From NCBI GenBank assembly GCA_963736525.1, contig CAVTPF010000004.1:44989-108988 (forward strand): a stretch of 64,000 nucleotides of DNA, given 5' to 3'. This DNA comes from an uncultured Acidimicrobiaceae bacterium. GTDB taxonomy: Bacteria; Actinomycetota; Acidimicrobiia; Acidimicrobiales; RAAP-2. Positions 26,214 to 55,735 of the stretch are shown piece by piece. The notes under the pieces are model-generated. The model did not search any database and was not told the DNA's origin. It saw only the letters and a program-made list of their open reading frames with translations. Position numbers and translations under genes: made by a program. Every line of letters starts with the position of its first letter. Positions within the stretch are counted from its first letter, which is position 1.

Positions 26214-26227
26214 GTGGCTCTCCGTAG

Positions 26228-26894: not shown

Positions 26895-26963
26895 GGGGGC
26901 AACAAGGTGATGGCCTCGGCGCCGACGGGTGCCATCCCCTTCTCGTCGCTCGTGCCCGGCTGA
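26895..26963 (+). pseudogene. Remnant (last ~22 codons) of a paralogue of the 48693..49439 gene
   Basis: It reads ...APTGAIPFSSLVPG*, compared with ...APTGAIPFSSLVSTSG* at 49366-49439. The similarity is visible at the nucleotide level, and there is no upstream coding body. Confidence 0.45.
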
Positions 26964-26985
26964 CGCCAGGTGCCGCGACGACTCG

Positions 26986-28953
26986 CTACCAGTCGAGGGT
27001 GAAGGTGAAGGTCGCCGGGGCGAAGTCGGTCGACCCGGCAGAGCTGATCGTCACCATGGCACTGGTGCCGGGGAGGCCCGAGAGCTCGTTGGCGGCGATC
27101 GTCCAGAAATAGTCCACCTGCCCTGTGGCGGCATCCGAGGAGGGAGCGCTCTCGCTCGGGTCCGTGATCCCCAGGGCGGTCGTCTCGTCCGTCGTCCCGT
27201 CGACGACGTCGACGGACAACGGACCCGGCGGCGTCCCGTTGCCGGTTGCGACGGCACCCAGCTGCACGCTGATTTCGTTGGCGTCCGCGGGGACAACGGT
27301 GACCGTGCCTCCGTTTGACAGTGACTGTGTGGTGCTCGAGGTGAGGTCCTCGGTGCTGGCGGTGAGGCTCACGGCACCGATGTCGTAGAAGGCCTGGACC
27401 GCGGGGGACGTCGTCGCGAAGTCGCCCGGCGCGTCCGAGAAAGACGAGAAGGTGGCGTCCACCTCGTTGCTCAGTCCCGGGCCGATCGTCGGGTCGGTGG
27501 TGAACGTCGCCTGCCCGTTCACCAGTTCCACCGGCGTGTCGGTTCCCAGCTGGGAGAAGGTGACGTCGCCGGTCGGCGTCAGACCGCCGCATGACGGCGA
27601 GCAGGTCACGGTGGCGGTGTAGGTCACGGGCACACCGAATGGGGTGGACGTCGTGTTCGGGGTCAAGGTGAGCGCCGTCGGCGCCGCGTCGACGGTGAGG
27701 TCGGTGCTGGCCGTGGAGGACGCGTTGAACGCGTCTCCCGTGTAGCTGGCCGTCACCGTGTAGTCACCGGCGTCGAGGTTGTCCGGGGTCGTGAAGCTGG
27801 CCTGGCCGGCCACGAGTGGCACCGTCGTGATTCCGGTGCCGGCGGAGAACTGGACAAAACCGCTCGGCGAAGTGCCACCGGTGACCGTCGCGGTGTAGGT
27901 CACCGCCGACGACTGGTAGGTGACTGGATCGGTCCCGCCGGACAGCGTCAGCGTCGTCGGCTGGGGGATCACCCCGGCACCCTGGACGACAAGCACGAAG
28001 TCCTGCGTCGACGAAAGACCGTTGCTCGCACTCACGTCGATCGGGTAGTCCCCCTGGGTCCCCGCGGCCGGTGCGCCCGACAGGTTGACCGCGAAGCCCT
28101 TTCCGTTGTGCACGGAGTGGAGCATCATGCCCGTGGGGGGCGCGCCAGTGACGGTCACGTTGGCCATCTTCGGAAACCCGGGCGTCCCCGCGATGCTCAC
28201 TGCGGTCGTTGGGGTGGCGCCCGCCGTGACGGTTGCCATGCCCGAGTCCGTGAAGGTCGGCGCCTCGTCGACGACGAGTTTGCAGTGCAGGTTCCGAGTC
28301 GTGTTGTTCGCATCCGAGGAGTACTGCAGCCCGTAATTGCCACCGGTACCCGGTTCGGGCGTGCCCGACAGGACACCGGCATCCTCGTTGTTCACATCCT
28401 GGTTGAACGAGATCCCCGAGGGGAGCGAATTGTTCTCGTCCAGCCCGAAGAAGGGCGGATAGGCGATGTCGGACTGGTCGTCATGGGTGTACTGCCCCAC
28501 GGTCATCGGCCCCGGGCAGAAGTTGCTGGCGAACACGGGGGTTTGAAAGACGGTGAGGTCGTAGGGCTCGGTGTCGGTGCCCTGGCTGTTCGTCGCCGTG
28601 ATCGTGATGAAGTAGTCGTTGCCCGTACCCGGCGCCGGCACGCCCGAGATGGTCGCGGACCCGCTTCCGGAGTTGAACGCCATGCCCGCCGGCAGCGCAC
28701 CCATCTCGGCGAACGTCGGCTTCGGATACCCGGTCGCGGTGATGTGCACCTCCTTGTTCTTGCCGACGACGACGGTGGCCGCGCTCTGTTTGATGGAAGG
28801 AGGCGACAGGGTTGGGGTGGCCGCGACCGGGCCAGCCATCCATACCAGGCCGAGGCCGAGGAACGACAGCGCGCTGACGAAGCACACGCCGCTCCGTACC
28901 TTCGACGCCGTCTTCGCGCCGCGCCGCGCCGCTCGCCATGGCACCCTGTGCAT
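26986..28953 (-). CDS. Secreted Ig-like-domain repeat protein (putative-Ig plus bacterial Ig-like group 3 type repeats)
   Basis: Signal peptide. Repeats include ISGVPAPGTGNDYFITITATNSQGTD and TYTATVTGGTSPSGFVQFSAG...GDYTVTASYTGD. The ATG at 28953 was chosen; the TTG at 28983 is an alternative. Confidence 0.7.
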   Translation of the reverse strand: MHRVPWRAARRGAKTASKVRSGVCFVSALSFLGLGLVWMAGPVAATPTLSPPSIKQSAATVVVGKNKEVHITATGYPKPTFAEMGALPAGMAFNSGSGSATISGVPAPGTGNDYFITITATNSQGTDTEPYDLTVFQTPVFASNFCPGPMTVGQYTHDDQSDIAYPPFFGLDENNSLPSGISFNQDVNNEDAGVLSGTPEPGTGGNYGLQYSSDANNTTRNLHCKLVVDEAPTFTDSGMATVTAGATPTTAVSIAGTPGFPKMANVTVTGAPPTGMMLHSVHNGKGFAVNLSGAPAAGTQGDYPIDVSASNGLSSTQDFVLVVQGAGVIPQPTTLTLSGGTDPVTYQSSAVTYTATVTGGTSPSGFVQFSAGTGITTVPLVAGQASFTTPDNLDAGDYTVTASYTGDAFNASSTASTDLTVDAAPTALTLTPNTTSTPFGVPVTYTATVTCSPSCGGLTPTGDVTFSQLGTDTPVELVNGQATFTTDPTIGPGLSNEVDATFSSFSDAPGDFATTSPAVQAFYDIGAVSLTASTEDLTSSTTQSLSNGGTVTVVPADANEISVQLGAVATGNGTPPGPLSVDVVDGTTDETTALGITDPSESAPSSDAATGQVDYFWTIAANELSGLPGTSAMVTISSAGSTDFAPATFTFTLDW

Positions 28954-29026
28954 CGTTGGCCAATGTACCGGCGACCCCCGCAAGCTTCGAAGCAGATCAC
29001 CCAGGTGTCACCTGGAGGTCACCCAC

Positions 29027-30361
29027 ATGTCGCACAATCGACGGACGCATTTCGGGGCGGTCATGCCCGACGCTATGGTGCCGCTCAGGACAGGCCGAGG
29101 AGTTCGAGTCGTGCCATTTGCACCGCCCGCGAAGGTAGGCCGGGCTCTCCATACGTATGCCGGCGTGGGAGCGGGCGTGGCCCTGCTCGGCACCGCGCTG
29201 GTAACGCTGCTTCGGTTCCCGTCGGCGGCGCAGGCGACCCAACTCGTCCCGCCGGGCACGCAGCCCAACGTGACGGCACAGCCGGGCACGCCTCCCGCCG
29301 GTGCGGTCGTGATCACCGACGATGCCAACGCAAAGCAACTGGTCAAGCGGGAGCCCCCGGGGACGTCGTTCGTCATCGCGTCCGGGACGCACATGCTCTT
29401 CTCTGTGATTCCGCAGGCCGGGGACCGGTTCTACGCACAACCGGGCGCGGTGCTCGACGGCGCCCACATCGCCATCACCGCCTTCAAGCCGCCACACGGG
29501 GCCACGGCGGACAACGTGGCGATCATCGGTTCGAGCGCCGCCGATCCCCTGGTGATTGAGGATTACGGCAAGAGCCAGCATTCGCAGACGGGCGCCGTGC
29601 AGACCAACAGCCAATCGCCCGCCCCGGGTGTCTACTCGACCGGCTGGTGGCTGCAGTGGGTCGAGGTCACGGGGAGTTCGTCGCGCGGCATCTCGCTCTC
29701 CAACGACATGGTGGTCCTGCAGTGCAAGGTCATCGACAACGATCGCCTGGGGATCGGTGGTGGTGGCAACGGCGTCACCATCGTGGACTCCGTCGTCTCG
29801 GACAACGGGCTGCACGTGGCACACAAGGGATGGGAGGCCGGCGGCATCAAGACCATCGCCGACAACGTCCTGATCGCGGACGACCAGATCGACGGGAACG
29901 GGGCCCCGGGAATCTGGACGGACAGCGGGGCGACGGACGTCGCCGCCCTCAACAACCATCTGTCGGGAAACACCTACGGGGTTCGGGTCGAGATCAGCCA
30001 CGACGTGACGATCGCCGCCAACACCATCGTGAACAGCGCGCAGCAGTCGGTGCTCGTGATCGCCTCGTCCGACGTGACGGTCCGCGCCAACGCGCTGGAC
30101 GGGAACTTCGGCGGGATCATCGTCGGTGGTGTCGGCCGGTACAACAAGACAGGGATCCACCTCGACGACGTCTACGTGGACAACAACAGCGTCGTCGACT
30201 CGGGGGCGACCGGGCTGCACCAGACGCCCCCGGCCGGAACGACCATCCAGTTCGACTACGACCACTTCGTCGGCGGGCACCTGCAGTGGGACGGCCACCG
30301 GATCACCTTGAGTGAGCTCCAGGCACTCGGACAGGAGCGCCACGGGACGTGGGCACAGTGA
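29027..30361 (+). CDS. Right-handed parallel beta-helix repeat protein, secreted
   Basis: Repeated short turns such as ...VIDNDRLGIGGGGNGVTIVDSVVSDNG.. and ..LSGNTYGVRVEISHDVTIAANTIVNS. The ATG at 29027 follows GGAGG. Confidence 0.7.
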   Translation: MSHNRRTHFGAVMPDAMVPLRTGRGVRVVPFAPPAKVGRALHTYAGVGAGVALLGTALVTLLRFPSAAQATQLVPPGTQPNVTAQPGTPPAGAVVITDDANAKQLVKREPPGTSFVIASGTHMLFSVIPQAGDRFYAQPGAVLDGAHIAITAFKPPHGATADNVAIIGSSAADPLVIEDYGKSQHSQTGAVQTNSQSPAPGVYSTGWWLQWVEVTGSSSRGISLSNDMVVLQCKVIDNDRLGIGGGGNGVTIVDSVVSDNGLHVAHKGWEAGGIKTIADNVLIADDQIDGNGAPGIWTDSGATDVAALNNHLSGNTYGVRVEISHDVTIAANTIVNSAQQSVLVIASSDVTVRANALDGNFGGIIVGGVGRYNKTGIHLDDVYVDNNSVVDSGATGLHQTPPAGTTIQFDYDHFVGGHLQWDGHRITLSELQALGQERHGTWAQ

Positions 30362-31962
30362 CGACCACCGGGTCGGGCACCCACCGGACCCACCGCGTAC
30401 AGACACCGAAGGCGCACAGAGCGGAAGCGCCGGCGGTCGACACCGACGCGGGTACGTTCGCCAGCGAGCTCCGGCTGCTCACCCGGGGCAGCTCGTTCGG
30501 CTTTGCCGGTCAGGCCGCCAGCGCCTTGCTGGCCTTCGGGTTCTCCCTGGCGGTGGGCCGGCTCTTCCATGCCGAGGGAACCGGGACGTTCTTCGAAGCG
30601 ATGGCCATCTTCACCATCGCCAGCAACGTGGGCGACCTCGGCGCCGACGACGGCCTGAACTGGTCGGTGCCCCGTCTCCGCGCCGCCGGGAAATCCGCCG
30701 ACATTCGTCGGCTGCTGCCGATCGCCTGCGTGCCCGTGCTGGTCATCTCCTCACTCTTCGCTCTGGCCCTCTTTGCCTTCGCGGTGCCAATCGCGCACCT
30801 CTTCACGCACGGGCACAACTCGACCCACCTGTCTTCGTTCATACGGATCCTCTGTCCCTTCGTCCCCGTCGCCGCGCTGGTGGAGGTGCTGATCGCCGGG
30901 ACCCGTGGGTTCGACCGGGTGTGGCCTCTTGCTGCCATTTGGTCGGTCATCATGCCGGCGTGCCGGCTCCTGTTGCTTCCCGTCCTCATCGCATCGGGCC
31001 TGGGGCTGCTCGCCGTCGCATACGCCTGGTCCGTGCCCATCGTGCTCGGTGCCGCCGCCATGCTGTGGACCCTGTGGATGTTCGTGGAGCGCGAGCACAG
31101 GTCGGCGGGCTCCGTCCACTCACCGGAGCGGACGAGGGTCCTGGCCCGCGCGTTCTGGACCTTCAGCGCCCCCCGGGGAGCGGCCTCCATTTGCGCCATG
31201 GCCCTGGTCTGGCTCGATGTCCTGCTCGTCGGCTACATCGTGTCGTTGCGCATGGCGGGGATCTACGGCGTGGCCAACCGCTACCTGGTCGTCGTGACCT
31301 TCGCCCTGGCAGCCGTGGGTGGGACCATCGGACCCCAGGTCAGCCGGCTGCTGTCCCTGGGACGGGTGCACGAAGTGCGGCGCCTGTACCAGGCGGCGAC
31401 GGCATGGGTGATGGCGATCGGGTGGCCCGTGTCGCTGATGCTGGCGCTCTTCGCCCCGTTCTTCATGCGGCTCTTCGGCCGGGAGTTCGCCGCCGGCGCC
31501 ACCGCCCTCACGATCCTGGCGTTGATGATGCTCTACGTCTCGGCCACGGGGAACAACACCGTCCTCCTCGTCATGTCCGGCAAGACGTCGACCAGCCTGT
31601 ACGTCGGCGTCATCACGTTGGCGGTGAACGTGGGGGCCAACCTGTACCTCATCCCGCGCCTTGGCATCAACGGTGCCGCATTGGCATGGGCGCTGAGCCT
31701 GCTCGTCGCCAACGCGATCATCACGGTGATCCTCTACCGGCGGCTGCGGCTCCATCCTCTGGGCCCGGCCTTCCTGCCGGTGATCGCGTCGGCGGTGTTG
31801 CTCGTCGGCGTGCCCGGACTGCTCTTCCGGGTGGCGTTCGGCACGCACTGGCCGGCCCTCCTGGCGACGGGCGTCGTCGCGGGCTCGGCATACCTGTACA
31901 GCCTGTGGAGGCTTCGCGAGAAGATGGAGCTCCCCGCGCTGTCGTCGGCGCTCCGTTCGTGA
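30349..31962 (+). CDS. Polysaccharide flippase (Wzx / oligosaccharide flippase family)
   Basis: About 12-14 hydrophobic helices and a polysaccharide-biosynthesis-protein-like N-terminus. The GTG start overlaps the upstream stop. Confidence 0.7.
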   Translation: MGTVTTTGSGTHRTHRVQTPKAHRAEAPAVDTDAGTFASELRLLTRGSSFGFAGQAASALLAFGFSLAVGRLFHAEGTGTFFEAMAIFTIASNVGDLGADDGLNWSVPRLRAAGKSADIRRLLPIACVPVLVISSLFALALFAFAVPIAHLFTHGHNSTHLSSFIRILCPFVPVAALVEVLIAGTRGFDRVWPLAAIWSVIMPACRLLLLPVLIASGLGLLAVAYAWSVPIVLGAAAMLWTLWMFVEREHRSAGSVHSPERTRVLARAFWTFSAPRGAASICAMALVWLDVLLVGYIVSLRMAGIYGVANRYLVVVTFALAAVGGTIGPQVSRLLSLGRVHEVRRLYQAATAWVMAIGWPVSLMLALFAPFFMRLFGREFAAGATALTILALMMLYVSATGNNTVLLVMSGKTSTSLYVGVITLAVNVGANLYLIPRLGINGAALAWALSLLVANAIITVILYRRLRLHPLGPAFLPVIASAVLLVGVPGLLFRVAFGTHWPALLATGVVAGSAYLYSLWRLREKMELPALSSALRS

Positions 31963-33185
31963 GAGTCCTCGTCGCCGCGTTCGCCTGCCGGCCGGGCGGG
32001 AGCTCGGAGACCGGCGTCGGGTGGGCGGTGGCGCGTGCCAACGCACGGCTCGGGCACGAGACGGTGCTGATCACCCAGCCCCGACATCGTGACGCGATTG
32101 AGGCCGCGCTCGCCGACGACGAGCAGCTGGCGCGCTGTCTCCGCCCCGTGTACATGGGCCTACCGGCGGGGCTGATGGAGACCTGGCAGGCCAAGGGTGG
32201 CCTGCGCGGCCTGCAGCTCTACAACCTGGTCTGGCAGGTGCGCCTGGCCCGGGTGGCGCGGCGCCTACACCGGCAGACCCCATTCGACGTCGGGCATCAC
32301 GTCACCCTCTCGACCGACTGGATCCCGAGCGGGTTGGCCTGGGTGCCGGACCTCAAAGTCGTGTGGGGGCCGCTCGGCGGCAGCGAACGCGTCCCGGTGC
32401 CGTGCCGGCCCTTCCTCGGACCCAGGGGCCGCGTCACCGAACTGGCCAGGGCGCTCGGAACCACGCCGATGCGAGCCGTCTTCGCGGGCGCCGCGGCGCG
32501 GCGGTGCTCGCTGCTCCTGGCGCAGAACGACGACGAGGCGACGGCACTGCGGCGCGTCGGGACGCCCGTCGATGTCAGACCGAACGTCTTCCTCGAGGCG
32601 GATTTCGCCGGAGGGGACATCACGCCACCAGCGACGGCGCACACGGCGCACCACTGCGCCGTGTTCGTAGGTCGGCTGCTGGCCTGGAAAGGTGTGCACC
32701 TGGCGGTGGCGGCGATGGCGCAGCCCGAGGCGGCCGCCTGGACCCTGGAGTTCTTCGGTGACGGACCCGAGCGGGGACGGCTCACCAGGTCGATCGCCGA
32801 GCGCGGCCTGCAGGAGCGCGTCAGCGTCGTGGGCCAGCGACCCCGCGCCGAAGTGCGGACCGCGCTGGCCACCGCGGACGTCCTCTTCTTCCCGAGTATG
32901 CGGGAGGCCGCGGGCTGGGTCGTGGCGGAAGCGCTGGCGGTGGGCTGCCCCGTCGTCTGCCTGCGGGCCGGCGGGCCACCGCTCATCGCCGGCGCGGCGG
33001 GCATCGCGGTGCCGCCGGGCCCCCACCTCGCACGGTCGCTCGCCCAGAGCCTGGCCGCCGCCGTCCAGCTGCCGCGCACCGTCGTGCGCTGGGACGAGAC
33101 GCAGCTGCCGGCGCTCCTCGACCGGTGGTACTCGACCGTCGGCGCGCGCGACGACCTCGACCGCTCCACCACCACACGCGCGTGA
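31959..33185 (+). CDS. Glycosyltransferase family 4 (GT-B)
   Basis: The GTG overlaps the flippase stop (GTGA). Motifs: VRVLVAAFACRPGGSSETGVGW and FVGRLLAWKG...FFPSMREAAGWVVAEALAVGCPVV (E-x7-E region). Confidence 0.8.
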   Translation: MRVLVAAFACRPGGSSETGVGWAVARANARLGHETVLITQPRHRDAIEAALADDEQLARCLRPVYMGLPAGLMETWQAKGGLRGLQLYNLVWQVRLARVARRLHRQTPFDVGHHVTLSTDWIPSGLAWVPDLKVVWGPLGGSERVPVPCRPFLGPRGRVTELARALGTTPMRAVFAGAAARRCSLLLAQNDDEATALRRVGTPVDVRPNVFLEADFAGGDITPPATAHTAHHCAVFVGRLLAWKGVHLAVAAMAQPEAAAWTLEFFGDGPERGRLTRSIAERGLQERVSVVGQRPRAEVRTALATADVLFFPSMREAAGWVVAEALAVGCPVVCLRAGGPPLIAGAAGIAVPPGPHLARSLAQSLAAAVQLPRTVVRWDETQLPALLDRWYSTVGARDDLDRSTTTRA

Positions 33186-34147
33186 GTGCCCTGCAGGTCG
33201 TCTACATCTCGGGGGCGCCGAGGAGCGGCACGACGGTGCTCGGCATGGCGCTCGGACAACTCGAGGCGGCCTGTGACATCGGGGAGTTCTGGGCGCTGTG
33301 GCGGCCGGCGTTCCGCTCCGGTGACCTGTGCGGCTGCGGGACACCGGTGCGGGAGTGTGCGTTCTGGCTCGCGGTCGCGGAGCGGTCCCTCGGGCCCGAC
33401 TTCGAGGCGAGGGGCGCGTCACTGGGCGCCCTCCACAAGCGCACGCTGGGCACGCTCAGCGCCCCCCGGGTCTGGATGCACGTGACGGGCCGGCGGCGGC
33501 GTCCCGAGTACGACGACTACGCCGACGCGCTGGGCCGCCACTACCGCGCCATCGCGGACGTGTCGGGCGCCCGGCTGATCATCGACTCCTCCAAGATGGC
33601 CGCCGACGCTCTGCTCGCCAGCACCGTTCCGGACATCTCCCTCTCGGTCATCCACCTCGTGCGCGACCCGCGCGCGGTGGCGTGGTCATGGCGCCGCCAG
33701 CGCCGCCAACCCGGGCCCCAGGGACGGGAGATGCAGCAGCAGGGCGTGCTCGCCACCGCCGCCCGGTGGGACGCCTACAACGCGTTTGCCGAGGCCCTCC
33801 TGGCTCCCCGCCTGGGTGAGCGGTTCCGCAGTCTCCGCTACGAGGATCTCCTGGCCCGTCCCGAGCAGCACATTGCGGACCTCGCCCTCTGGCTCGGGGC
33901 CGAGCCCGGCGCTGTCACGATCGAGGGGACTCCCCCCGTCCTCGCCATGACACGCGCGTCGCACCCCGTGTGGGGCAACCCCGTTCGCACGGCGACCGGA
34001 TCGATACCGCTGCGGGAGGACTCCGAGTGGCGGGACCGCATGCCCGCGCTCGACCGGGGCATTGCCACGCTCATGACGCTCCCGTTCCTGGTGCGCTACC
34101 ACTACCCCATGGGACGGACGATGGCCGAGGGCCGGCCGACGCGGTAG
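33182..34147 (+). CDS. Sulfotransferase family protein
   Basis: 5'-PSB loop ISGAPRSGTT, 3'-PB HLVRDPRAVAWSW and a CGCG...C motif. The GTG overlaps the GT4 stop. Confidence 0.75.
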   Translation: MSALQVVYISGAPRSGTTVLGMALGQLEAACDIGEFWALWRPAFRSGDLCGCGTPVRECAFWLAVAERSLGPDFEARGASLGALHKRTLGTLSAPRVWMHVTGRRRRPEYDDYADALGRHYRAIADVSGARLIIDSSKMAADALLASTVPDISLSVIHLVRDPRAVAWSWRRQRRQPGPQGREMQQQGVLATAARWDAYNAFAEALLAPRLGERFRSLRYEDLLARPEQHIADLALWLGAEPGAVTIEGTPPVLAMTRASHPVWGNPVRTATGSIPLREDSEWRDRMPALDRGIATLMTLPFLVRYHYPMGRTMAEGRPTR

Positions 34148-35082
34148 CCGTACCGCCCCATGAGGGGGAAGGCACCAACGGTGGCCTTCCGGCGGTCCAT
34201 CTGCATCATCTCCGTCTCCCAACGCCGGTCGGCCGACAGGTGCACGACTCCCGTGCGCATCCGGCTCGGATTGCCGGCAACCGTGTGGGAACGGGCGAGC
34301 CGTACCTCGTCGGTCGCCAGGAACGGGAGATCGGTCGGTGAACGGCCGAAGCGCTCGAGCACGTGACTGAGCTCGCGGGCTGGCTCCTCCATGACGTCCT
34401 CGTAGCGGAGCGCCACGTAGCGCCGCCCGAGGCGTGGCCGGATGAGCATCTCGATCGCACTGTTCCACGCCGTCCACCAGGCGGCGCTGTGCAACGCGCC
34501 ATGGTGCGGCGGGTGATCGACGCCACCCTCCACGGAGCCGTTCCTGTTGGGTCGCTCCCAGGAGAAGGCTACCGCCCGAGGGTCGCGCACGATGTGCAGC
34601 ACCGTGAGATCGACGTCGGGCCGCGACGCCAGGAGTAGCGCCTCGGCCGGGTGCTTCGACGAGTCGACGATGACCGCTTCACCCGTCGAGGCGAGCAGGG
34701 CCTGGTAGATGCCCGAGAGCACGTCCCCGTAGTTGATGGCGGTGTCGGGCGCACGTGGGGACCGTCGCCGCGCCGCCCAGTAGAGCGCGGGGAGGTCGCG
34801 CGTCCGCGCACTCTGATCCCGCATGGAACGGATCGTTCGCGTCGTGTACCCCGTCGCGGTCTCCATGGAATGCAACAACGGGCCCCACAGAGGGCAGTGC
34901 TCGACGACCTCACCGCAACCGCACAGGTGGAGCGCCGGGTCGGTGTCCCACAGCGAGCGCAGTTCGCCGACCGACAAGAACCCGGGAACCTGACCGAGGA
35001 CGCGATCGATGATCGTGGTTCCGCTCCGGCCCCACCCGCAGATGTACAGCACGCGGGATCGGACCAACGGATGTGGCCGCAT
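34102..35082 (-). CDS. Sulfotransferase family protein (paralogue, convergent)
   Basis: ICGWGRSGTT, HIVRDPRAVAFSW and CGCG...C. Only the last 327 codons of ORF 34102..36222 are real. Its 3' end overlaps the other sulfotransferase by 46 nt. Confidence 0.75.
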   Translation of the reverse strand: MRPHPLVRSRVLYICGWGRSGTTIIDRVLGQVPGFLSVGELRSLWDTDPALHLCGCGEVVEHCPLWGPLLHSMETATGYTTRTIRSMRDQSARTRDLPALYWAARRRSPRAPDTAINYGDVLSGIYQALLASTGEAVIVDSSKHPAEALLLASRPDVDLTVLHIVRDPRAVAFSWERPNRNGSVEGGVDHPPHHGALHSAAWWTAWNSAIEMLIRPRLGRRYVALRYEDVMEEPARELSHVLERFGRSPTDLPFLATDEVRLARSHTVAGNPSRMRTGVVHLSADRRWETEMMQMDRRKATVGAFPLMGRYGYRVGRPSAIVRPMG

Positions 35083-35304
35083 GCAGCGAGCGTATCCCCG
35101 CATGTTTCGCCGTCTCCATCCGGGCTGCGGAAGTGAACGTTGCATGGCTGTTTCGCGAACTCCTCGCGTCAGCGTGACACGCAGGAGACAGCCACTCGAC
35201 ATCTCTCCTCTCGCCTCAACGGGCGCGGAACCCCTTCGGTATGCTGCGCGGACCAGGTGGTGGCGACGGATCTCGGAGGCGGTGCAGCCTTGCAGGAGGA
35301 CGAC

Positions 35305-37212: not shown

Positions 37213-37217
37213 CGGTC

Positions 37218-39527: not shown

Positions 39528-39606
39528 GACCTGCAGCGGCCCTTCTTCCTCTCCGGTCTATCCGGTGACGGGTGACGGTGCGGCCCCACCGACACCGGGA
39601 CCCGTG

Positions 39607-41811: not shown

Positions 41812-41914
41812 CGATTGTCCGTTGACGATGACGGTGCCCGACGCGAACGCGGGAGCCGTGGTGAGGCGGCCAGCGCGCCGATTTCAACAGCGAACATCAT
41901 GATTGGTATCGACC

Positions 41915-43063: not shown

Positions 43064-43082
43064 GACAGGCGCACCGAGGAGC

Positions 43083-46183: not shown

Positions 46184-46265
46184 TGAGGATCGCGCTCAAT
46201 TCCTTGAGGTCGGTGGTGACGCTGCAGCGTCGCGAGCGGGGCCGGCCGGGACGGTAGACCGAGAG

Positions 46266-46301
46266 CAACGGGGCCCAGCCCCGAAAGGCTGGACCCCGTT
46301 G
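46266..46301 (-). terminator. Strong stem-loop downstream of the 46363..48138 gene
   Basis: CAACGGGGCCCAGCC-ccgaaa-GGCTGGACCCCGTTG, a 15-bp stem with one mismatch. It lies 62 nt after the stop. Confidence 0.55.
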
Positions 46302-46362
46302 TGCCGCGTCTCTGTCTCGGAAGCCAAAACCTCAACGGATTCCGAGTGTGGATCCCTCTCGG

Positions 46363-48138: not shown

Positions 48139-48344
48139 GTACCCGTTTCCTTTCGCCCGGCGAGCCGGAGTCGGTTCTGCTCCAAGTGTTCTTTTCCGTT
48201 GCTCAGCGATACCGCTCGTGGTGACGCAACGAACCCGGAGACCCTTTGTGTCGCACGCCTGGCAAAAGAGGGAACGGCACCGCCGTCCCCTCGTTCACCC
48301 TCGCTCGTGGCCGGTATTGCCGGCGGTCGATTCGTCACCGGGGC

Positions 48345-48506
48345 GGACGTTAGGAGCCGAAAGTTAACGGATATCGACCAATACGCTACGGGAGATGAAT
48401 TCTTCAGTGACCCCGATGAAAGACAAGGTCACGGCCTTGCACGGCACAAGCGACCGGTTCCGCACACGAACGGAAGATGGCCGTTTGGTGACATCGTTCA
48501 CCCCGG
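48345..48506. promoter_or_regulatory. Conserved 162-nt non-coding module, copy A (paralogue of 55574..55735)
   Basis: Identical blocks are GGACGTTAGGAGCCGAAAGTTAACGGA (27 nt), GGAGATGAATTCTT and GGTGACATCGTTCACCC. On the minus strand the promoter-like geometry is TCACTG-16 nt-TAGCGT (48410-48383). Confidence 0.5.
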
Positions 48507-48571
48507 TAGCGACGTCGCTGCTTGCCGTAGCACCGTTCGTTGGACCCACCCCGATGCCGTCGGACGAAGAG

Positions 48572-48593
48572 GGCGGTGGGCGGACCCACCGCC
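48572..48593. other. Stable hairpin GGCGGTGGG-cgga-CCCACCGCC in an intergenic region
   Basis: A perfect 9-bp GC stem with a tetraloop, read directly from the sequence. Its function is unknown. Confidence 0.4.
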
Positions 48594-48624
48594 GGCGGGC
48601 AGAGATGCGGGTGCGTCGCGTCCC

Positions 48625-48646
48625 GTTCACCCGCATGTTTCACAAC
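48625..48646 (+). promoter_or_regulatory. PHO-box-like pair GTTCACCCGCA TGTTTCACAAC upstream of 48693
   Basis: The first unit matches 10 of 11 positions of G(G/T)TCAYYYR(G/C)G. It lies 47-68 nt before the GTG start. Confidence 0.3.
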
Positions 48647-48692
48647 TCAAAGCTGCGCCCTGGCACCGTGGAGTCACCGGTAGAGTGCTGCC

Positions 48693-49439
48693 GTGATCCG
48701 ATGCCTGCGCACCGCTAGCTGCCTCTCCGCTCTCGCCGTGTCCGTTCCCGTGGCCCTTTTAACCTCCGCATCTGTGGCCACCGCGACGCCGCCTTCCGCG
48801 ATCAAACTTCTGAGCCAGTCCGTCGAAGCAGCGAATTCCAAGGGGTCGCTGACCTTCTCGGACACCACGCGGAGCGGGAAGAACGTCGAGGTGCTCACCG
48901 GCGCGGTCAGTGCACCGACCGCCGCCGAGTCCCTGACCGAGACGGGACACGGCCCGTTGAACGTGTTGTTGATCGGCGACACTATCTACGTGCGCGGCGA
49001 CAGTGATGTGCTGCACGGGACGTTGGGTCTGCCACTCGCCGCCTCCACCGCCAACTCGGAGAAGTGGATCTCGGTTCAGTCGGGCGATAGTGCGTTCAGC
49101 CAGCTCGTCGCACCGCTCAACATGTCGACTGAGCTCAACAACTACGTCCCTGCCGGCCACCTCAAGAAAGGGAGGATCACCACGGTGGACGGCCACAAGG
49201 TGATCCCTCTGACGGGCGCCGCCTCGGCCTCGGCCGCCCAGGGTGGTGCCGGGGCTGTGGCCTTGTTCGTCTCCACCAATGCGCCGTATCTGCCGGTGGG
49301 AGGGACCCTCGTCGTCGTCAGGAGAGGCTCTCCCGGTCTCAGTGAGGTGGCGGCGTTTAGTGCTTGGGGGAGCAAGGTGGTCGCCAACGCGCCAACCGGT
49401 GCCATTCCCTTCTCGTCGCTCGTCTCGACCTCCGGCTGA
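48693..49439 (+). CDS. Secreted hypothetical protein (LolA/LppX-like guess)
   Basis: Signal peptide MIRCLRTASCLSALAVSVPVALLTSASVATA. No catalytic motif was recognised. A C-terminal remnant of a paralogue lies at 26895..26963. Confidence 0.5.
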   Translation: MIRCLRTASCLSALAVSVPVALLTSASVATATPPSAIKLLSQSVEAANSKGSLTFSDTTRSGKNVEVLTGAVSAPTAAESLTETGHGPLNVLLIGDTIYVRGDSDVLHGTLGLPLAASTANSEKWISVQSGDSAFSQLVAPLNMSTELNNYVPAGHLKKGRITTVDGHKVIPLTGAASASAAQGGAGAVALFVSTNAPYLPVGGTLVVVRRGSPGLSEVAAFSAWGSKVVANAPTGAIPFSSLVSTSG

Positions 49440-49486
49440 GGTCGCCCGCACGTCTGAGGGGACCAGGACACACCCTCCTTTGTTCA

Positions 49487-49711
49487 TCACCAGACGAGGG
49501 TGAAGTTGAATGCCGGCACAAAGTCTGTCGACCCGGCGTAGCTGACGGGCACAGTTGCGCTCGCACCCGTGATCCCAGACGACGCGTTGGCCGGGATGTC
49601 CGGTAGTCGTCCGCTCTCCGGCGGCGGGCCCGGCGGACCAGGCATTGTCGCTGGGGTTTCGTAAAGGGCCATTTGCCACGTCCGGAGCGCCGCATCAAGG
49701 GTACGGCTCAA
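49487..49711 (-). pseudogene. Probable 3' remnant of an Ig-like exoprotein gene (paralogue of 26986..28953)
   Basis: The C-terminus ...ASATVPVSYAGSTDFVPAFNFTLVW* compares with ...SAMVTISSAGSTDFAPATFTFTLDW*. Nucleotide similarity covers the first ~60-110 nt, and there is no Ig-repeat body upstream. Confidence 0.4.
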
Positions 49712-49966
49712 GGGCGCGACCCTGGCGGCAGCTCGCGTACTGGCGCGGCGCCATCATGATCCACCCGACCCTGCACCAGGTCTCGGCAGCCGTATGCGGG
49801 CGATGCGGGCCTTTCGTTCACAACGTGGTACGGCGACGCACGCACAGCGAAACTGTGCGAGTCTGCATACAGGAGAAGGGGGCCGAGGAGACGGGCTTCG
49901 CCGAGGTGGCGCGGGACGCCAGGCCGGACTCAGAGGTGAAGCGAAGCCGTCACGATGCGGACGCCG

Positions 49967-50488
49967 TCACTGGTCGAAGATCCCGACCTGAGCCTTGCCA
50001 TGAAATCCGGTCGACGTCCTGTACTCGAACTGCCCGATTCCCGCTGGCGGCGTCATGGTGTGCGACTGCCCGGGCTGAATGGTGAACGACGGCTGCATCA
50101 GCGGGATGAGCGTGATCGTCACCGGTGACGAAGCGAGGTTCGTAAAGGTGATCGGCTCGCCCTTCGCGGCGAAGAGCCACGCCGGCAGGAACCCCTTTGC
50201 CGTCCAGACGACGTTCTGGCCCGTGGCGAAATGCGACGAAATCGCCAGACCGTTCGCTTCGCGGGGCACGGTGACCGACTGGCCGTTGACCATGACTGTG
50301 GGAGTCGTGATTGCGGGCGCCAGCGTGGTACCCGGGGTCTGCCTGCTGGCGCTGGCGGTGGGGGACCCACCGCTGCTCCCACCACAGGCTGACGCGGTCA
50401 ACGCCAGCGCGACCACTGCACTGGCAACGGCCAGCCCTCGGGTGTTGACGGAGTACCGGCGTGCGGCCTTGGGGACGAGGGGTGTCAT
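49967..50488 (-). CDS. Lipoprotein with a cupredoxin-like C-terminal domain (copper ligands not evident)
   Basis: The ATG is at 50488 and the lipobox is LALTASAC. The pattern GEPITFTN....VTITL...FTIQPGQSHTMT.PAGIGQFEYRTSTGFHGKAQVG follows cupredoxin strand spacing, but there is no Cys or Met at the ligand positions. Confidence 0.55.
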   Translation of the reverse strand: MTPLVPKAARRYSVNTRGLAVASAVVALALTASACGGSSGGSPTASASRQTPGTTLAPAITTPTVMVNGQSVTVPREANGLAISSHFATGQNVVWTAKGFLPAWLFAAKGEPITFTNLASSPVTITLIPLMQPSFTIQPGQSHTMTPPAGIGQFEYRTSTGFHGKAQVGIFDQ

Positions 50489-50532
50489 GGTGACGTCGGA
50501 CCTCACAGAGTCGGGGGAGCAACAGGGACAGG

Positions 50533-50736
50533 TTGGAGAACTATTCGAGTGCCAGGGCAAGCACGATCGGAGCGCCGAGAAGATACACGGTCCAGATCTG
50601 TCGCGGTGCACGACGATGCGCCAGGAAGGTGGCCGCGTTGCAGAAGAACGTGCCCGTGTCGGCGTTGTCTCCAGGTGCTGCGCCTGAGAGCGGCGTCGAC
50701 GTGGAGTCCGTGACGGCCTTCCTGCCGCAGCGTCAT
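50533..50736 (-). pseudogene. Composite remnant: large-PBP gene start plus a 79-nt internal piece plus the sortase-homologue 3' end
   Basis: 50710-50736 matches the start region of 43083..45560, with a frameshifting indel. 50631-50709 matches 44949-45027. 50541-50632 matches 41950-42045 at about 80 percent identity and encodes ...RRAPRQIWTVYLLGAPIVLALALE*. Confidence 0.55.
50631..50709. repeat. Partner of repeat 44949..45027
   Basis: See 44949..45027. Confidence 0.85.
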
Positions 50737-50987
50737 GGTGCGTTCCCCGACCGCGGCTCGTCCGTGACGTCGCCGCGCCGGCGACGCGCGATCGCGACGG
50801 CCGGCGGCAGGGCCAGCAGAGCCAGGAATCCCAGCGCGGCCAGAAGAACATCGGCGTTGGGCCCGGGCGACTTCAACAGGGAAGCAGTGGTGCGCTGCAG
50901 GGCGACGCCGGCAACCTGGCCCGGCGCCGCCGAAACCTCGTTGGCCGCCTTCTTGGCCGCCGCGGCCGCGGCGGCCTTGGCCTGTGC
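50710..50987. repeat. Partner of repeat 45535..45811
   Basis: See 45535..45811. Confidence 0.85.
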
Positions 50988-52448
50988 GGCGGCCTGGGCT
51001 GCCGCCTGCGCCGAGCTGGCCGACGTGCCGCTGGTGGAGGTCTTGCCACCCGCCGACGACGCCGACCCCGGTCCGTTGACCGTGGCGGGACCACCGTGTG
51101 CCGCGGCCGGGCCCGCTGCGGCCGTCCCCGCGGTGGCGGTGGCGGTGGCGGCCCCGCCCGATGACGGGGTTGCGGGCGCGCTCCCGATCACGGGCTCGCC
51201 CTGCAGAGGCAGCTGCCCATCAACGTACGGGTTCGGGCAATTCGACGCATTCGGGGCCGGGAGGGCGGTACCGGTGATGCGTTGCACCGCGTCGAAGTCT
51301 GCCTGGACCAGGTTCGGCGGCAGGGGCGAGTATCCCAGCGCACCGGCCGACTGTTGGCCCCGGCAGGCCACGAACTGGACGAACTGACCCTCCTCGGCCT
51401 GCTTGTCAGACGATATCTCGCTCTGCTCGGCCATGATGAGGTAGCTGTAGGCCGAGATGGAGTAGGCCGTCGGCTGCGTCGACTCGAAGACGGGGACCAG
51501 GTTCTGCTCGAGGTCCGGCTGCAGCGCGTCGGATTCCAACGCGACGGCGTCGGCCGTTTCGGAGGGCTGGACGTACGCCCCGCTGGCGTTCTGTACCGCC
51601 GCGCACGGGTCGTGGTGCAGGATCGCGTAGGCCGTCTCGACGTACGTGATGGAACCCGGGTTGCCGTAGACGTAGTTGGACGCGTTGTCAGACCCGGACT
51701 CGCCGCTCCAGTTGCCGAAGTTGTAGGGGCCCACCGTGCGCTGTCCCCCCTGCGGGATCGGCCAGATGGCCTGCGCCCCGGGCGGCGACTGCACGGCACT
51801 GGTGAAGGCCGACCACGCGGACCCCTGCAGGGTCGAAAGGTAGTCCGAGAAGATGTAGTTGTCGCCCGACGCATCCGTTCGGTAAACGACGACGATGGGT
51901 GTGTTCGGCAGCTGCACGCCCGGATTGAGTGCGGCGATGGCCGGGTCGTTCCACTTCGTGATGGTGCCGCTGAACATGCCGACCATGACGCTGGAGTTGA
52001 GCTTGAGCGACGTGATCTGGTTGCCCAGATTGTCCTGGAGGTTGTACATGAGGCAGGTCGCGCCCGCAACGTCGGGCAGGTACTGGTAGCTGAACCCCGC
52101 TGCCGGCTCCTGGTTCGCCTGCCCGGTGCTGTAGCCGATTTCGCTCGCACCGAAGTCGACCAGCGGGTACTGGGCGAAGTTGTTGAGACCGATCACCGAC
52201 GACGTCGTCGCGTAGTTGATGTTGTCGCCGTAGAGGCTCTGCACCTGCGAGGCCCACTGGTTAATGGCGACGGCGGCATAGCTCGAACCGGTCCCGGAGA
52301 TCGTGGGACCCGACGCGCCGGCGACCTGCGGACGCGTGACGAGCAGACCGCAGGCCGCGGCCAGGCATGCCATTATGCAGGCGATTCGGCTCGCCGCCGC
52401 GGGCACCCGCCTCCTGGTCGGGGTTTCAGCCAAAACGGCCATGGACAT
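50733..52448 (-). CDS. PstS-like phosphate-binding-fold protein with an Ala-rich stalk and a C-terminal membrane anchor
   Basis: The start at 52448 or 52442 overlaps the pstB2 3' end. The signal is [37 protein letters not shown]. The blocks [25 protein letters not shown] and [19 protein letters not shown] mirror PstS1. The tail is [37 protein letters not shown]. Confidence 0.75.
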
Positions 52449-53265
52449 AGTCAGACGTCCTCGGGTCGACGGGTTGGGCGAAGATCTGGGTCGTCGGTCC
52501 CGACTCGACGATCCGCCCCGGCGTGTTCTCCTCGGCGAGGAAGAAGGCGCACGAGTGCGAGACGCGCTGGGCCTGCTGCATGTTGTGGGTGACGATGACG
52601 ACCGTGACATCCTCGGCGATCTCGTCGATCGTCTGCTCGATGCGGTTGGTCGACGCCGGGTCGAGCGCCGAGCACGGCTCGTCCATCAACAGGACCTTGG
52701 GGCGTACGGCGAGGGCCCGGGCGATGCAGAGGCGCTGCTGCTGGCCGCCCGAGAGCGCTCCCCCAAGGTCACGGAGCCTGTTCTTGACCTCGCTCCACAG
52801 TCCCGCCCGGGTGAGGGAGTACTCCACCAGGTCGTCCTTGTCGTGGATCCTCGTTCTCGTGAAGCGCAGGCCCGACAGCACGTTGTCGCGGACCGACATG
52901 GCCGGGAACGGGTTGGGGCGCTGGAACACCATGCCGATCTGGCGCCGCACCTCATTGGCCCGTTGGGTCGCTCCGTAGATGTCCTCGCCGTCGAGTTCCA
53001 CGGAGCCCGCCAGCTGTGCGCCGGGAACGACCTCGTGCATACGGTTGAGGATACGCAGGAAGGTCGACTTCCCACATCCCGAGGGTCCGATGAGAGCCGT
53101 GACCTGGGAGCGCTCCATGTCAAGGTTGACGTCCTCGAGCACGCAGCGGCTGCCGAACCACGCGCACACACCGCGCGCCACGAGCTCACCCGCCTGCGGG
53201 GCCGCGGTCGCAGCCCCGTTTTTGCTCGCCTCGTGCACGGCCGGGGTCGGCTGGGTCGTCGTCAT
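52426..53265 (-). CDS. pstB: Phosphate ABC transporter ATP-binding protein (second copy)
   Basis: [36 protein letters not shown] and [11 protein letters not shown]. The ATGA overlaps the pstA2 stop. Confidence 0.9.
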
Positions 53266-54494
53266 GGCGAGTCCCCTCTCGGGCGCATGACTCCCGAGGC
53301 ACCACGCACGGCCGCGCCCGCCGCGCCTTTCATGGCGGCGTTCGCCTCCCTCGCGTTACGGCGTCCCCGGATCTTGTTCCCGAGCCACGTGCTGCCCAGG
53401 ACCCGGGCCAGGATGAAGATGATGAAGACCATGATGAAGAGCACAAGGGCCGCCGTGTAGCCCAGCTGGATGTCCGCCGCCTGCGACGATCGTACCTCCG
53501 TGTAGGCCAGCAGCGATAGAGCCGACTGGGGCCCGCTGAACGGGTTGGCGTTCATCAGCTTGTTGCCGAAGATGGTGAGGATCAACGGCGCCGTCTCGCC
53601 GAGTGCCACGGCCACGCTGATGAGGACGGCCGTGATCAGGCCCGACTGGGCGGTGGGGAGGACGACGGACCAGACGGTCCGCCACTGCGGCGCGGCCAGC
53701 GCGGCGGACGCCTCCCGCAGGTCGTCCGGCACGATTTTCAGCACTTCCTCGGTGCCCCGGGTCACCGTGGGCAGCAACAGGACGGCCAGGGCCAGCGCCC
53801 CGGCGAAGCCCGAGTAACCGAAATGGAGCGTCTCGATCAGGAGGGAGTAGACGAAGGCACCGGCGACGATGGCCGGGACGCCGCTCATCGCAGTGACGAT
53901 GATCCGGACCCAGCGCGTCATGCGGCCCCCGACCTCGTTTAGGTAGACAGCGGTGAGCACCCCCGCCGGAACGCCCATCATGGCGGCCAGCCCGATCTGC
54001 TCCAACGTGCCGACGATGGCGTGGGCCACCCCCGGCTTCGGGCACGGCTCACCCGGGACGCACAGCTCGAGCACGCCCTTCTGCGTGGCGAAGAGGAGAT
54101 GGATGGACAAGAGCTGCCAGCCCTTGATGAAGAGGAACACCACGAGCAGGACCAGGGGGGCGAACATGCACAACGCCCCGAGCGTGACCAGCGCGGCTAC
54201 CGTGCGGTCCGTGGCGACACGGCGCCCGTAGACCTGCGTGTTCACGGCCCAGTACATGGCCAGGAAGAGGACGAACCAGCAGATGACGAATCCGGTCGGT
54301 CCCGAGAGGAACGTCAGCTGCTCGAAGAGGATCCAGACCGTGGCGAGCGACGAGGCGATGGAGACGGCGAGCACACCCAGTTCGCCGGGCTGCATCTCCC
54401 TCGGCCGGCGCGGCACCTTGCTGCGGGGCCGCGGGTACGTGGGCGTCGGTCGCGGCGGTGGCGCCAGGACGGGTCGCTGATCGGTGAGGGCCAT
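53262..54494 (-). CDS. pstA: Phosphate ABC transporter permease (second copy) with a Pro-rich N-terminal extension
   Basis: The ATG at 54494 overlaps the pstC2 stop (TGATG). It has the [15 protein letters not shown] loop and six helices. Confidence 0.85.
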
Positions 54495-55495
54495 CAGTGC
54501 GCCTTGGACCGGCTGACGATGACGGACGCGATGAAATTCACCGTCAGGGTGAACACGAAGAGCACGAGTCCGCACGCCAGCAGCGCCGAGAGGCCGAGCT
54601 TCCCACCGGACCCGAACCGGTTGGCGATCAGCGCGGCGATGGAGTTGCCGCCGGACTGAAAGATTTGTTCGGAAATCCCGTAGTTGAGACTCAGGATGAT
54701 GGAGACCGCCACGGCCTCGCCGAGGGCGCGGCCCAGGCCCAGCATGATGGCCCCGATGGTCCCGCCGAACCCGAACGGGAGCACGACGTCGCGCACGACG
54801 CGGGCGCGGGTGGCTCCGAGTGCCATGGCGCCCTCGCGCTCACCGACGGGCGTCAACGAGTAGATCTCGCGGGTGATCGACGTGACGATGGGCATGATCA
54901 TGATCCCGACCAGCACCCCGGCTATGAAGTACGAGGACGTGAAGACCACCGTCCCGTTGGCGACGTGGAAGATGGGAATGAAGCCGAGGTGCACCGTCAA
55001 GAACTTCGCGATGTCCTTGAGCCGCGGTTGGAGGAAGAAGAAGCCCCAAAGGCCGTAGATGACGCTGGGTACGGCGGCCATGAGGTCGACCATGGACGTG
55101 AGAAATCCCTTGAGTGGGAAGAAGCCCAGGAAGCTGCGCGGCGCGTACTCGTTGATGAACAGCGCGGATCCGATCGACACCGGCACCGCCACCACGACGG
55201 CGATCAGGGCGATGACGACCGATCCGTACAAGGCGGATTCGACGCCGAACTGGGGATGGGCGCCGGTGGTGACGAAGCCCGTCGTCGTGAAGAACTTCCA
55301 GCCGGCGGCGCGCAGGGCCGGCAAGGCCTGAAGGAAGAGGAAGAGCCCGATCAGGATCAGGACGAGGAAGGTGAAGCCGCCTGCGGCCTTGGTGACGAGC
55401 CTGAAGACCTGATCGGACCGGGAGAGCCGGCTGCGCAGCCGGATCGGGGTGAAGCGGGGGCTCTCGGCGGGAGCGTCAGGTGTGGTGACTGTCAC
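54494..55495 (-). CDS. pstC: Phosphate ABC transporter permease (second copy)
   Basis: GTG start. It has the EGAMALGATRARV EAA loop and a PstC-like helix pattern. Confidence 0.85.
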   Translation of the reverse strand: MTVTTPDAPAESPRFTPIRLRSRLSRSDQVFRLVTKAAGGFTFLVLILIGLFLFLQALPALRAAGWKFFTTTGFVTTGAHPQFGVESALYGSVVIALIAVVVAVPVSIGSALFINEYAPRSFLGFFPLKGFLTSMVDLMAAVPSVIYGLWGFFFLQPRLKDIAKFLTVHLGFIPIFHVANGTVVFTSSYFIAGVLVGIMIMPIVTSITREIYSLTPVGEREGAMALGATRARVVRDVVLPFGFGGTIGAIMLGLGRALGEAVAVSIILSLNYGISEQIFQSGGNSIAALIANRFGSGGKLGLSALLACGLVLFVFTLTVNFIASVIVSRSKAH

Positions 55496-55573
55496 TGAAG
55501 AGCACTTTCATGTTCCCTCTGAGTTGTCAGTGCTGCCGCCCTGATCCGCCGAGAACGCTCAGCCCCGGTCGCC

Positions 55574-55735
55574 GGACGTTAGGAGCCGAAAGTTAACGGA
55601 GTTCGACTAACACGCTACTGGAGATGAATTCTTGAGTAACCCTTGCTATTCCCGAGGTCACTGACTTTCCGCGCCAATGAGCCTGTCACGCCACGCGAAC
55701 AGAAGATGACAACGAGGTGACATCGTTCACCCTCG
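55574..55735. promoter_or_regulatory. Conserved 162-nt non-coding module, copy B (paralogue of 48345..48506)
   Basis: It has the same three identical blocks as copy A. The minus-strand geometry is TTACTC-16 nt-TAGCGT (55629-55602). It sits between divergent pstC2 and the Wzy-GT gene. Confidence 0.5.

Follow-up and report, generated by a model that had tools for sequence, protein, structure and literature searches.

The analyzed window, a 64-kb stretch of contig CAVTPF010000004.1 (assembly GCA_963736525.1, uncultured Acidimicrobiaceae bacterium; G+C content 68.8%), carries a surface locus encoding a putative Pst-type transporter, three PstS-like proteins, a sortase-domain protein, a lipoprotein, and a polysaccharide biosynthesis cluster, whose parts are distributed between two adjacent collinear copies. 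Self-BLASTN of the window with short words gave 12 internal matches in total. Nine of them formed a strictly collinear same-strand series, 26896–48503 (copy 1) versus 49366–55732 (copy 2), with E values ranging from 9e-8 to 1e-131 (copy 1 / copy 2, nucleotide identity):

26896–26953 / 49366–49423, 83%, E 2e-9
26988–27115 / 49489–49612, 70%, E 9e-8
41610–41695 / 49966–50051, 74%
41704–41857 / 50168–50321, 71%
41911–42043 / 50499–50630, 80%, E 2e-27
44949–45027 / 50631–50709, 98.7%
45533–45811 / 50708–50987, 97.1%, E 1e-131
46096–46189 / 55408–55501, 75.5%
48344–48503 / 55573–55732, 75%, E 2e-22

An initial annotation of this DNA, made from the sequence alone, had proposed eight such pairs in the same order and orientation, and the alignments reproduced them with coordinates within a few tens of bases. 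For the sortase 3′ end, the homology was borne out, while its true start proved to be 41911/50499. Unremarked in that annotation was the existence of two identity classes: seven pieces were 70–83% identical, and two adjoining pieces were 97–99% identical. The gene map was based on third-position G+C content and on Pfam and NCBIfam profiles; open reading frames (ORFs) lie on the minus strand unless stated otherwise:

24960–26231 (−), P450
26228–26857 (−), TetR
26896–26963 (+), copy 1 Lpp stub, the final ~22 codons in frame with their own stop codon
26986–28983 (−), copy 1 immunoglobulin-like (Ig-like) surface protein, intact (Big_3_5, He_PIG)
28619–41583, polysaccharide biosynthesis cluster, in copy 1 only (beta-helix proteins, flippase, sulfotransferases, WecG, Big_3_5 protein, Bac_transf)
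41611–41900 (−), copy 1 lipoprotein pseudogene, start codon kept
41915–43063 (−), copy 1 sortase-domain protein of 382 amino acids (aa), intact
43083–45560 (−), copy 1 large secreted and anchored protein of 825 aa, intact
45557–46183 (−), copy 1 fusion ORF of 208 aa (pstC start, PstS linker remnant, anchor tail)
46363–48138 (−), copy 1 PstS-family binding protein of 591 aa, intact
48344–48503 (−), upstream module of copy 1, containing a conserved 64-nt core at 48345–48410
48504–48636, junction of the copies, 133 bp, with a 9-bp-stem hairpin inside
48693–49439 (+), copy 2 Lpp, intact secreted protein of 248 aa
49487–49612 (−), copy 2 Ig-like stub, the final ~42 codons
49613–49965, copy 2 spacer, 353 bp standing in for ~14.5 kb of copy 1
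49967–50488 (−), copy 2 lipoprotein of 173 aa, intact
50499–50630 (−), copy 2 sortase stub, the final ~43 codons
50631–50735 (−), copy 2 remnants of the large-protein gene, the start region joined to a 79-bp internal piece
50733–52448 (−), copy 2 anchored PstS of 571 aa, intact
52426–53265 (−), copy 2 pstB, intact
53262–54497 (−), copy 2 pstA, intact
54494–55495 (−), copy 2 pstC, intact
55573–55732 (−), upstream module of copy 2, now 78 bp from pstC
55846–58611 (+), Wzy/glycosyltransferase fusion, divergent

As judged from lengths compared with those of orthologues, each of the ten genes and the polysaccharide cluster was intact in exactly one copy. The Ig-like protein, the polysaccharide cluster, the sortase, the large PstS-like protein, and the 591-aa binding protein are retained in copy 1; Lpp, the lipoprotein, the anchored PstS, and pstBAC are retained in copy 2. 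The lengths of retained proteins matched those of their orthologues (591/589, with the 589-aa orthologue in contig L001; 333/333, 410/411, 279/278, 571/569, 825/834, 382/383, 173/170, and 248/247 aa), and the orthologue of the Ig-like protein in contig L055 had 642 aa. With the stubs disabled, the two copies together thus hold one presumably working version of each gene, as the initial annotation had claimed. Its further statement that every pair consists of an intact member and a stub is true of the genes but not of the non-coding module, which is the sole element whole in both copies.

The copy 2 operon encoded a PstS binding protein, two BPD_transp_1 permeases, and an ABC ATPase (Pfam), which together make up a putative Pst-type (pstSCAB) ABC transporter; PstS scored 198 bits on TIGR00975, just under the equivalog cut-off of 205. 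A 625-aa version of the PstS ORF, with a start codon placed too far upstream, had no record in an exact-protein look-up. PstB, PstA, and PstC had 92–94% amino acid identity with those of L001. The start codon of the 825-aa gene was confirmed by an identical database protein (P0001, 100%), for which no record was found by exact-protein look-up. This protein, labelled ‘large PBP’ in the earlier annotation, is PstS-like only in its C-terminal lobe (PDB PstS1, E 1.6e-6; TIGR00975, E 1e-12). The sortase domain PF04203 scored 69 bits (cut-off 26.6) and TIGR01076 scored 41.6 (cut-off 39.35), and the protein was below the cut-off for every sortase class. The tails of the anchored PstS and the 825-aa protein consist of a hydrophobic segment and a basic end, and no LPXTG or LAXTG motif was seen when they were read by eye. 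The 248-aa Lpp belonged to no Pfam or NCBIfam family, and a profile of its 13 homologues had no PDB match; the name ‘LppX-like’ previously given to it finds no support in these searches.

The locus is flanked by the Wzy/glycosyltransferase gene, a BY-kinase-like gene, and glycosyltransferases. A second, divergent pst-like set was found 35 kb away (14031–18219), consisting of an ABC ATPase (14031–14942), a PBP_like_2 protein (14943–16169), and a permease (17005–18219); it is the source of two weak inverted self-matches at 14–16 kb to pstB and PstS. The remaining self-match is a local 79-bp inverted repeat with 73% identity (5684–5762 / 6433–6355), located in or beside overlapping ORFs at 5078–6940.

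Single locus in relatives and mapped deletions

The 825-aa protein had 34 database homologues, nearly all metagenomic. The contigs carrying the closest of them (L001, with 70% identity, L003, L004, L002, and L005) had one locus each. The order in these relatives starts with the divergent Wzy/glycosyltransferase gene, the ~590-aa binding protein, pstC, pstA, pstB, the ~565-aa PstS, and the ~810-aa protein, and continues with the sortase, the ~170-aa lipoprotein, Bac_transf, the Big_3_5 protein, WecG, a beta-helix protein, and sulfotransferases. Scans of species-representative genomes and of metagenomes gave 46 further loci with the same core order (L006 among others), most of them from metagenome-assembled genomes of Acidimicrobiales or Acidimicrobiaceae and one labelled only Actinomycetes. 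L001, L003, and L004 cover the right two-thirds of the order predicted for an undecayed locus. The left end was found in L055 and in the contig of P0037, where P450, TetR, an intact Lpp (+), an Ig-like protein (−), and a beta-helix protein follow one another as in window 25–30 kb with the Lpp gene restored. In L023 the entire order was present on one contig without the polysaccharide cluster, running lipoprotein, Ig, Lpp, TetR, and P450. L054 likewise agreed with the single-locus order. A single undecayed locus in the order proposed by the initial annotation is therefore present in relatives, none of which carries the stubs as conserved independent small genes.

At the DNA level, the single locus of L001 maps to the window as alternating blocks of the two copies:

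L001 1–345, copy 2
L001 183–2624, copy 1
L001 2455–7275, copy 2
L001 7001–10971, copy 1
L001 10794–11456, copy 2
L001 from 11100 onward, copy 1

L055 was likewise split between 25498–26877 and 26982–30066 (copy 1) and 48637–49613 (copy 2); its segment 2179–2239 aligned to the copy 1 Lpp stub (26896–26956) at 82%.

With L001 and L055 as templates, at least eight deletions of 108 bp to ~14.5 kb were mapped. A stretch of ~833 bp is missing from copy 1, where 18 bp (26878–26895) stand in for the first 676 bp of Lpp plus some of the TetR–Lpp spacer. In its lipoprotein gene, a frameshifting 127-bp deletion removed the signal peptide and the lipobox, and another 108 bp were lost in frame. A further ~4.1 kb, from pstC codon 44 through pstA and pstB to the PstS linker, was also deleted in frame. 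The resulting 208-aa fusion ORF is composed of pstC codons 1–43 (46054–46183), a remnant of the PstS linker (45812–46053), and the PstS anchor tail (45557–45811), and the ATGA overlap between its stop codon (TGA) and the start codon (ATG) of the 825-aa gene is preserved. Copy 2 has lost the ~2.1-kb binding-protein gene (L001 346–2454; 55535–55569 in its place), which is why its module lies so close to pstC. It has also lost 505 bp within the 825-aa gene, with GG microhomology at the joint, and 2905 bp from the middle of this gene to the final 43 codons of the sortase gene; the 79-bp internal piece sits between these two deletions. The start region of the large gene carries a 1-bp insertion in codon 3; in the sortase stub, a W codon is changed to a stop and the reading frame is shifted. 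The largest loss, ~14.5 kb, extends from the 5′ part of the Ig gene through the polysaccharide cluster, with 353 bp in its place.

Every stub adjoins a retained gene. The sortase 3′ end precedes the start of the lipoprotein gene, the PstS tail overlaps the start of the large gene, the pstC 5′ end follows the binding-protein gene, and the convergent 3′ ends of Lpp and Ig face each other. This placement suggests that the extent of the deletions was bounded by the need to spare the expression signals of neighbours.

The upstream module present in both halves has a relatively A+T-rich core of 64 nt (48345–48410 and 55574–55637). This core was 80–86% identical in L002, L003, and L004, whose coding DNA was ~65–70% identical. 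The consensus energy of the module RNA (−1.9 kcal/mol) gave no support for a fold, an Rfam search over 24–58 kb with E up to 1 returned only a chance snoRNA match, and a scan for promoter consensus sequences around module 1 gave nothing, with no sigma-70 consensus in the core. The module is conserved at the sequence level, and a DNA-level regulatory site is its most likely reading. Transcription from module 1 would serve the genes for the binding protein, the large protein, and the sortase as well as the fusion ORF, with pstCAB, PstS, and the lipoprotein depending on module 2; since each half retains a module copy, the one ancestral operon probably now runs as two transcription units. A palindrome, GTGAACGATGTCAC, was present at the 5′ edge of both modules. 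Upstream of Lpp, a motif GTTCACC..GTTTCACAAC was conserved in both the window (48620–48645) and L055 (1430–1455), and we take it to resemble the direct repeats of actinobacterial PhoP boxes.

A conserved cassette was evident in ~50 loci (L001–L053), mostly from metagenome-assembled genomes of Acidimicrobiales, in the order of a ~590-aa PstS-family protein, pstC, pstA, pstB, an anchored PstS, a ~810-aa protein, a sortase, and a ~170-aa lipoprotein; its counterpart in the window is 41915–55495. The ~810-aa protein is Cys-rich, with ten invariant Cys and a PstS-like C-lobe. Some genomes had two loci (L007/L008, L011/L024, L012/L027, and L013/L025). This Acidimicrobiales cassette, which combines a pst-like transporter, three PstS-like proteins, a sortase, and a lipoprotein, appears to be undescribed.

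Divergence of the copies and constraint on the stubs

In pairwise comparison of stubs with their intact partners (226 codons), synonymous divergence (dS) was 0.83, nonsynonymous divergence (dN) was 0.25, and their ratio (omega) was 0.30. From this low ratio the truncations could be taken as very recent; decomposition of the branches with L001 or L055 as the third sequence (205 codons) overturned that view. Omega was 0.58 (0.42–0.79) on the stub branches versus 0.26 (0.16–0.42) on the intact branches (bootstrap P = 0.996), and the three-taxon synonymous tree was star-like (stub branch 0.25, intact branch 0.26, relative 0.20). The stubs are thus under relaxed constraint, as pseudogene fragments should be, and they have not been neutral for their whole history. 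The pstC stub was an exception among them, with omega of ~1.1 over the whole branch (43 codons).

The two pieces of the high-identity class belong to a tract of ~360 bp with sharp borders (50631–50987, minus strand), 97–99% identical to 44949–45027 and 45533–45811. The same 7–8 differences separate the two tract copies in both assemblies compared. We read the tract as a recent, later gene conversion at the PstS tail and the start of the large gene, judging by its identity and borders. Two of the copy 2 deletions cut through the tract and therefore postdate it; the decay is stepwise and partly recent.

Between the window and L001, divergence was mosaic along the locus, with dS from 0.10 to 0.91: 0.10–0.32 in polysaccharide genes, 0.46–0.68 in the pst, binding-protein, and sortase genes, and ~0.9 in those encoding the large protein and the lipoprotein of copy 2. 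Alleles of the locus therefore recombine. The polysaccharide cluster was collinear with that of L001 at 76–100% identity, and the sulfotransferases differed at four residues. Along window 33390–41318, identity with L001 was ~76–88% near 41 kb and rose to 97–100% at 33.4–36 kb; the pst side was ~86% identical. This gradient points to recent recombination between haplotypes in the polysaccharide cluster. The flanking TetR and P450 genes had dS of 0.48 and 0.61, respectively, with those of L055.

Origin of the two copies

Because the source is evidently a metagenome-assembled genome, we considered whether two strain haplotypes of a variable locus had been concatenated or mis-joined during assembly, a concern already raised in the initial annotation. 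A contig from ENA (ERZ25039509 contig_59068, referred to as L029) matched window 38694–55915 at 99.72% over 17.2 kb and was collinear through the rearrangement. A Logan contig (SRR28011923, L030) matched 45937–50681 with 2 mismatches in 4745 bp (99.96%) and extended from the fusion ORF and the binding-protein gene across module 1 and the junction into Lpp, the Ig stub, the lipoprotein gene, and the stubs of the sortase and the large gene. The single-locus contig L001 is contig_59067 of the same ENA sample as L029, and both begin at the same homologous base, as might be expected of an artefact. The single-locus and rearranged forms thus co-occur in one sample. Since two other assemblies reproduce the arrangement, one of them with a contig that crosses the junction and links the binding-protein gene with Lpp and the lipoprotein, and since concatenation would leave two complete loci instead of eight complementary deletions, an in-frame fusion ORF, and microhomology junctions, an assembly error is highly improbable. 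The window and L029 differ by ~0.3%, yet both carry the arrangement. Their differences were uneven: 31 single-nucleotide polymorphisms (SNPs) lay in 38.7–41.9 kb, ~6 SNPs and a few single-base indels lay in 42–55.3 kb, and further differences clustered at 55.46–55.83 kb. Three indels in pstC of L029 may be long-read errors.

Several of the matches are short (58–160 bp) and lie at gene ends, so one could suppose that no whole locus was ever duplicated and that the shared pieces are either brief conserved elements such as anchor tails, signal sequences, and promoters or else small segments copied independently between two unrelated neighbouring loci. The synteny data already contradict this supposition, to which we give hardly any credence: nine pieces lie in identical order and orientation, jointly tile a single locus found in all relatives, include non-terminal fragments (79 bp internal to the large gene and the middle of the lipoprotein gene), and bear frameshifts and a stop codon in the stubs.

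We conclude, with a probability of about 0.85, that the whole ancestral locus came to be present as two tandem copies and that complementary deletions followed, each gene surviving in one copy. The initial annotation had interpreted the pairs in the same way, and the single-locus synteny and mapped breakpoints support it. This conclusion draws on direct observations, namely the repeats, the undivided locus of relatives, the mapped breakpoints, the relaxed constraint seen in stubs, and the recurrence in other assemblies; the order of events, expression from two promoters, and the reason for stub persistence we infer. An ancestral surface locus of ~28 kb, bounded on one side by the Lpp promoter region and on the other by a point ~110 bp upstream of the divergent Wzy/glycosyltransferase gene, would have become two direct tandem copies. 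Because every gene was then redundant, deletion of one of its copies would have been tolerated, and that of the last copy would not. At least eight deletions would have produced two complementary half-loci, in which the surviving stubs would be gene ends kept beside retained genes for their ribosome-binding sites, overlapping stop/start codons, and convergent 3′ ends. Gene conversion would later have homogenized ~360 bp at the PstS tail and the large-gene start. No tRNA was found in the 64-kb window and no integrase or transposase near the borders; the flanking genes were metabolic or cell-envelope genes. Neither were insertion sequences found at the borders or other long repeats in the window by self-BLASTN, so that neither a mobile-element-mediated duplication nor a genomic island is indicated.

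Several observations weigh against so simple a history. Omega below 1 on the stub branches means that the lost copies were constrained for about half of their history, which pure redundancy does not predict. At dS ~0.8, the distance between the copies equals that to alleles in other genomes, which makes the two-copy state old; plain in-place duplication would need both this old age and an escape from collapse while the copies were identical. More synonymous change falls on the branch of the intact copy 2 lipoprotein than on that of its copy 1 stub (20.9 versus 11.6 differences), and neither the spacer 49613–49965 nor the junction 48504–48636 had a homologue by blastn or tblastx in the window and all loci. 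To an origin by in-place duplication with slow fractionation, we accordingly assign slightly less than an even chance.

The same end state could have been reached if the second copy was a divergent allele from another strain or species, integrated beside the resident one and followed by reciprocal deletions; single-crossover integration of a circularised fragment, or other recombination forming merodiploids, could have brought it in, and such formation during DNA uptake is documented in Streptococcus pneumoniae (PMC3784515). The divergence of the copies, equal to that of alleles in different genomes and comparable to or beyond that of TetR and P450 between the window and L055, speaks for this origin, as does the stub omega of 0.58, a value readily understood if each copy was a functional gene in its own lineage while they diverged. 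So do the frequent allelic exchange seen in the mosaic dS between the window and L001 and the position of the junction-spanning segment 50630–46054, which is the more distant partner on both sides when all sites are counted. The asymmetry on the right-hand side disappears, however, at synonymous sites, where the pstC 5′ end of copy 1 differs from L001 at 13 and that of copy 2 at 14 positions; its excess distance is nonsynonymous change in the stub, in line with omega of ~1.1 along that whole branch. The one asymmetry left at synonymous sites is the long branch of the copy 2 lipoprotein. No donor-type allele was found in the databases searched, where the best non-self match was 63% for the lipoprotein and 65% for Lpp. 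Both metagenome scans gave nothing close: the one with the 591-aa protein had no match, and the one with an alignment of the large protein returned only relatives at ≤48% identity. This origin also presupposes a donor molecule that was circular or permuted. Weighing these points, we consider integration of a divergent allele possible, with the odds against it.

A more specific version, with a central foreign block and Campbell integration at the 97–99% tract, was suggested by total-site distances and was downgraded by the equal synonymous differences in pstC and the star-like tree; assuming that the stubs spent ~40% of their branch as pseudogenes, the tract is too young to mark the original crossover. 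That two divergent alleles of a hypervariable surface locus merged, became fixed as a homeologous merodiploid, and were fractionated into a chimeric locus is, on balance, unlikely. If true, such a merodiploid would pair one allele's transporter with surface proteins from a different allele, one operon being re-wired into two promoter-driven units, and allele merger would be a bacterial route to shuffle surface-locus alleles besides clean allelic replacement. The rest of the probability for the origin falls to mixed histories, such as duplication followed by allelic replacement of the outer parts.

Comparison with known systems

Tandem duplications are common in bacteria but short-lived. Persistent, diverged bacterial duplications partitioned gene by gene are, to our knowledge, rarely documented, and ideas on duplication, degeneration, and complementation are therefore mostly based on eukaryotes. 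In a literature search, which was not exhaustive, we found no comparably fractionated operon-scale bacterial case with the unduplicated state kept in relatives.

Reciprocal gene loss, or fractionation, after duplication and the duplication–degeneration–complementation model are associated with the yeast whole-genome duplication (Scannell et al. 2006, as cited in PMC12508797). There, two collinear paralogous regions each keep part of the ancestral genes, every gene being left in one of them, and are recognized by interleaving against an unduplicated outgroup, as in our case. The present case differs in that a single tandem bacterial segment of ~28 kb is involved here rather than a whole genome, loss proceeded by deletion leaving gene-end stubs, and an operon was split into two units with retained copies of the promoter region.

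Tandem duplications and amplifications in bacteria have been reviewed (PMC3857721), and plasmids contain segmental duplications in which sequence decay is uneven (SegMantX, PMC12508797). Such duplications tend to be young and unstable, with near-identical copies. The present locus shares with them a multigene direct tandem repeat, the absence of a mobile element at the borders, and heterogeneous similarity of the copies. Unlike usual bacterial tandem duplications, its copies differ by 20–30% and are fully fractionated, and assemblies 0.3% apart share the arrangement. As in the transformation merodiploids of S. pneumoniae (PMC3784515), incoming DNA can create a tandem duplication, which would explain copies already divergent when joined. 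Those merodiploids, unlike the present copies, need resident repeats as alternative pairing sites and yield identical copies; no such repeats were seen here.

Hypervariable surface-polysaccharide loci of the capsule or O-antigen type are exchanged by recombination in conserved flanks. The present locus resembles them in its Wzy/glycosyltransferase, BY-kinase-like, and glycosyltransferase flanks and in the mosaic divergence between co-occurring haplotypes (dS 0.1 to 0.9). It differs in its variable core, which consists of the pst-like ABC transporter, three PstS-like proteins, the sortase, and the lipoprotein, a combination that we do not know as a described serotype cassette.

The case is tractable, as the unduplicated state is kept in many relatives, including a haplotype of the same sample, and every breakpoint is readable. 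The stubs reveal sequences that the deletions could not remove, namely gene ends beside retained genes, and the case draws attention to a conserved Acidimicrobiales cassette, strongly mosaic in its divergence between haplotypes, beside a polysaccharide cluster. We regard the case as a moderately interesting evolutionary curiosity and a clean example of a process known from eukaryotic genomes and expected in principle in bacteria, not as a new kind of molecular system.

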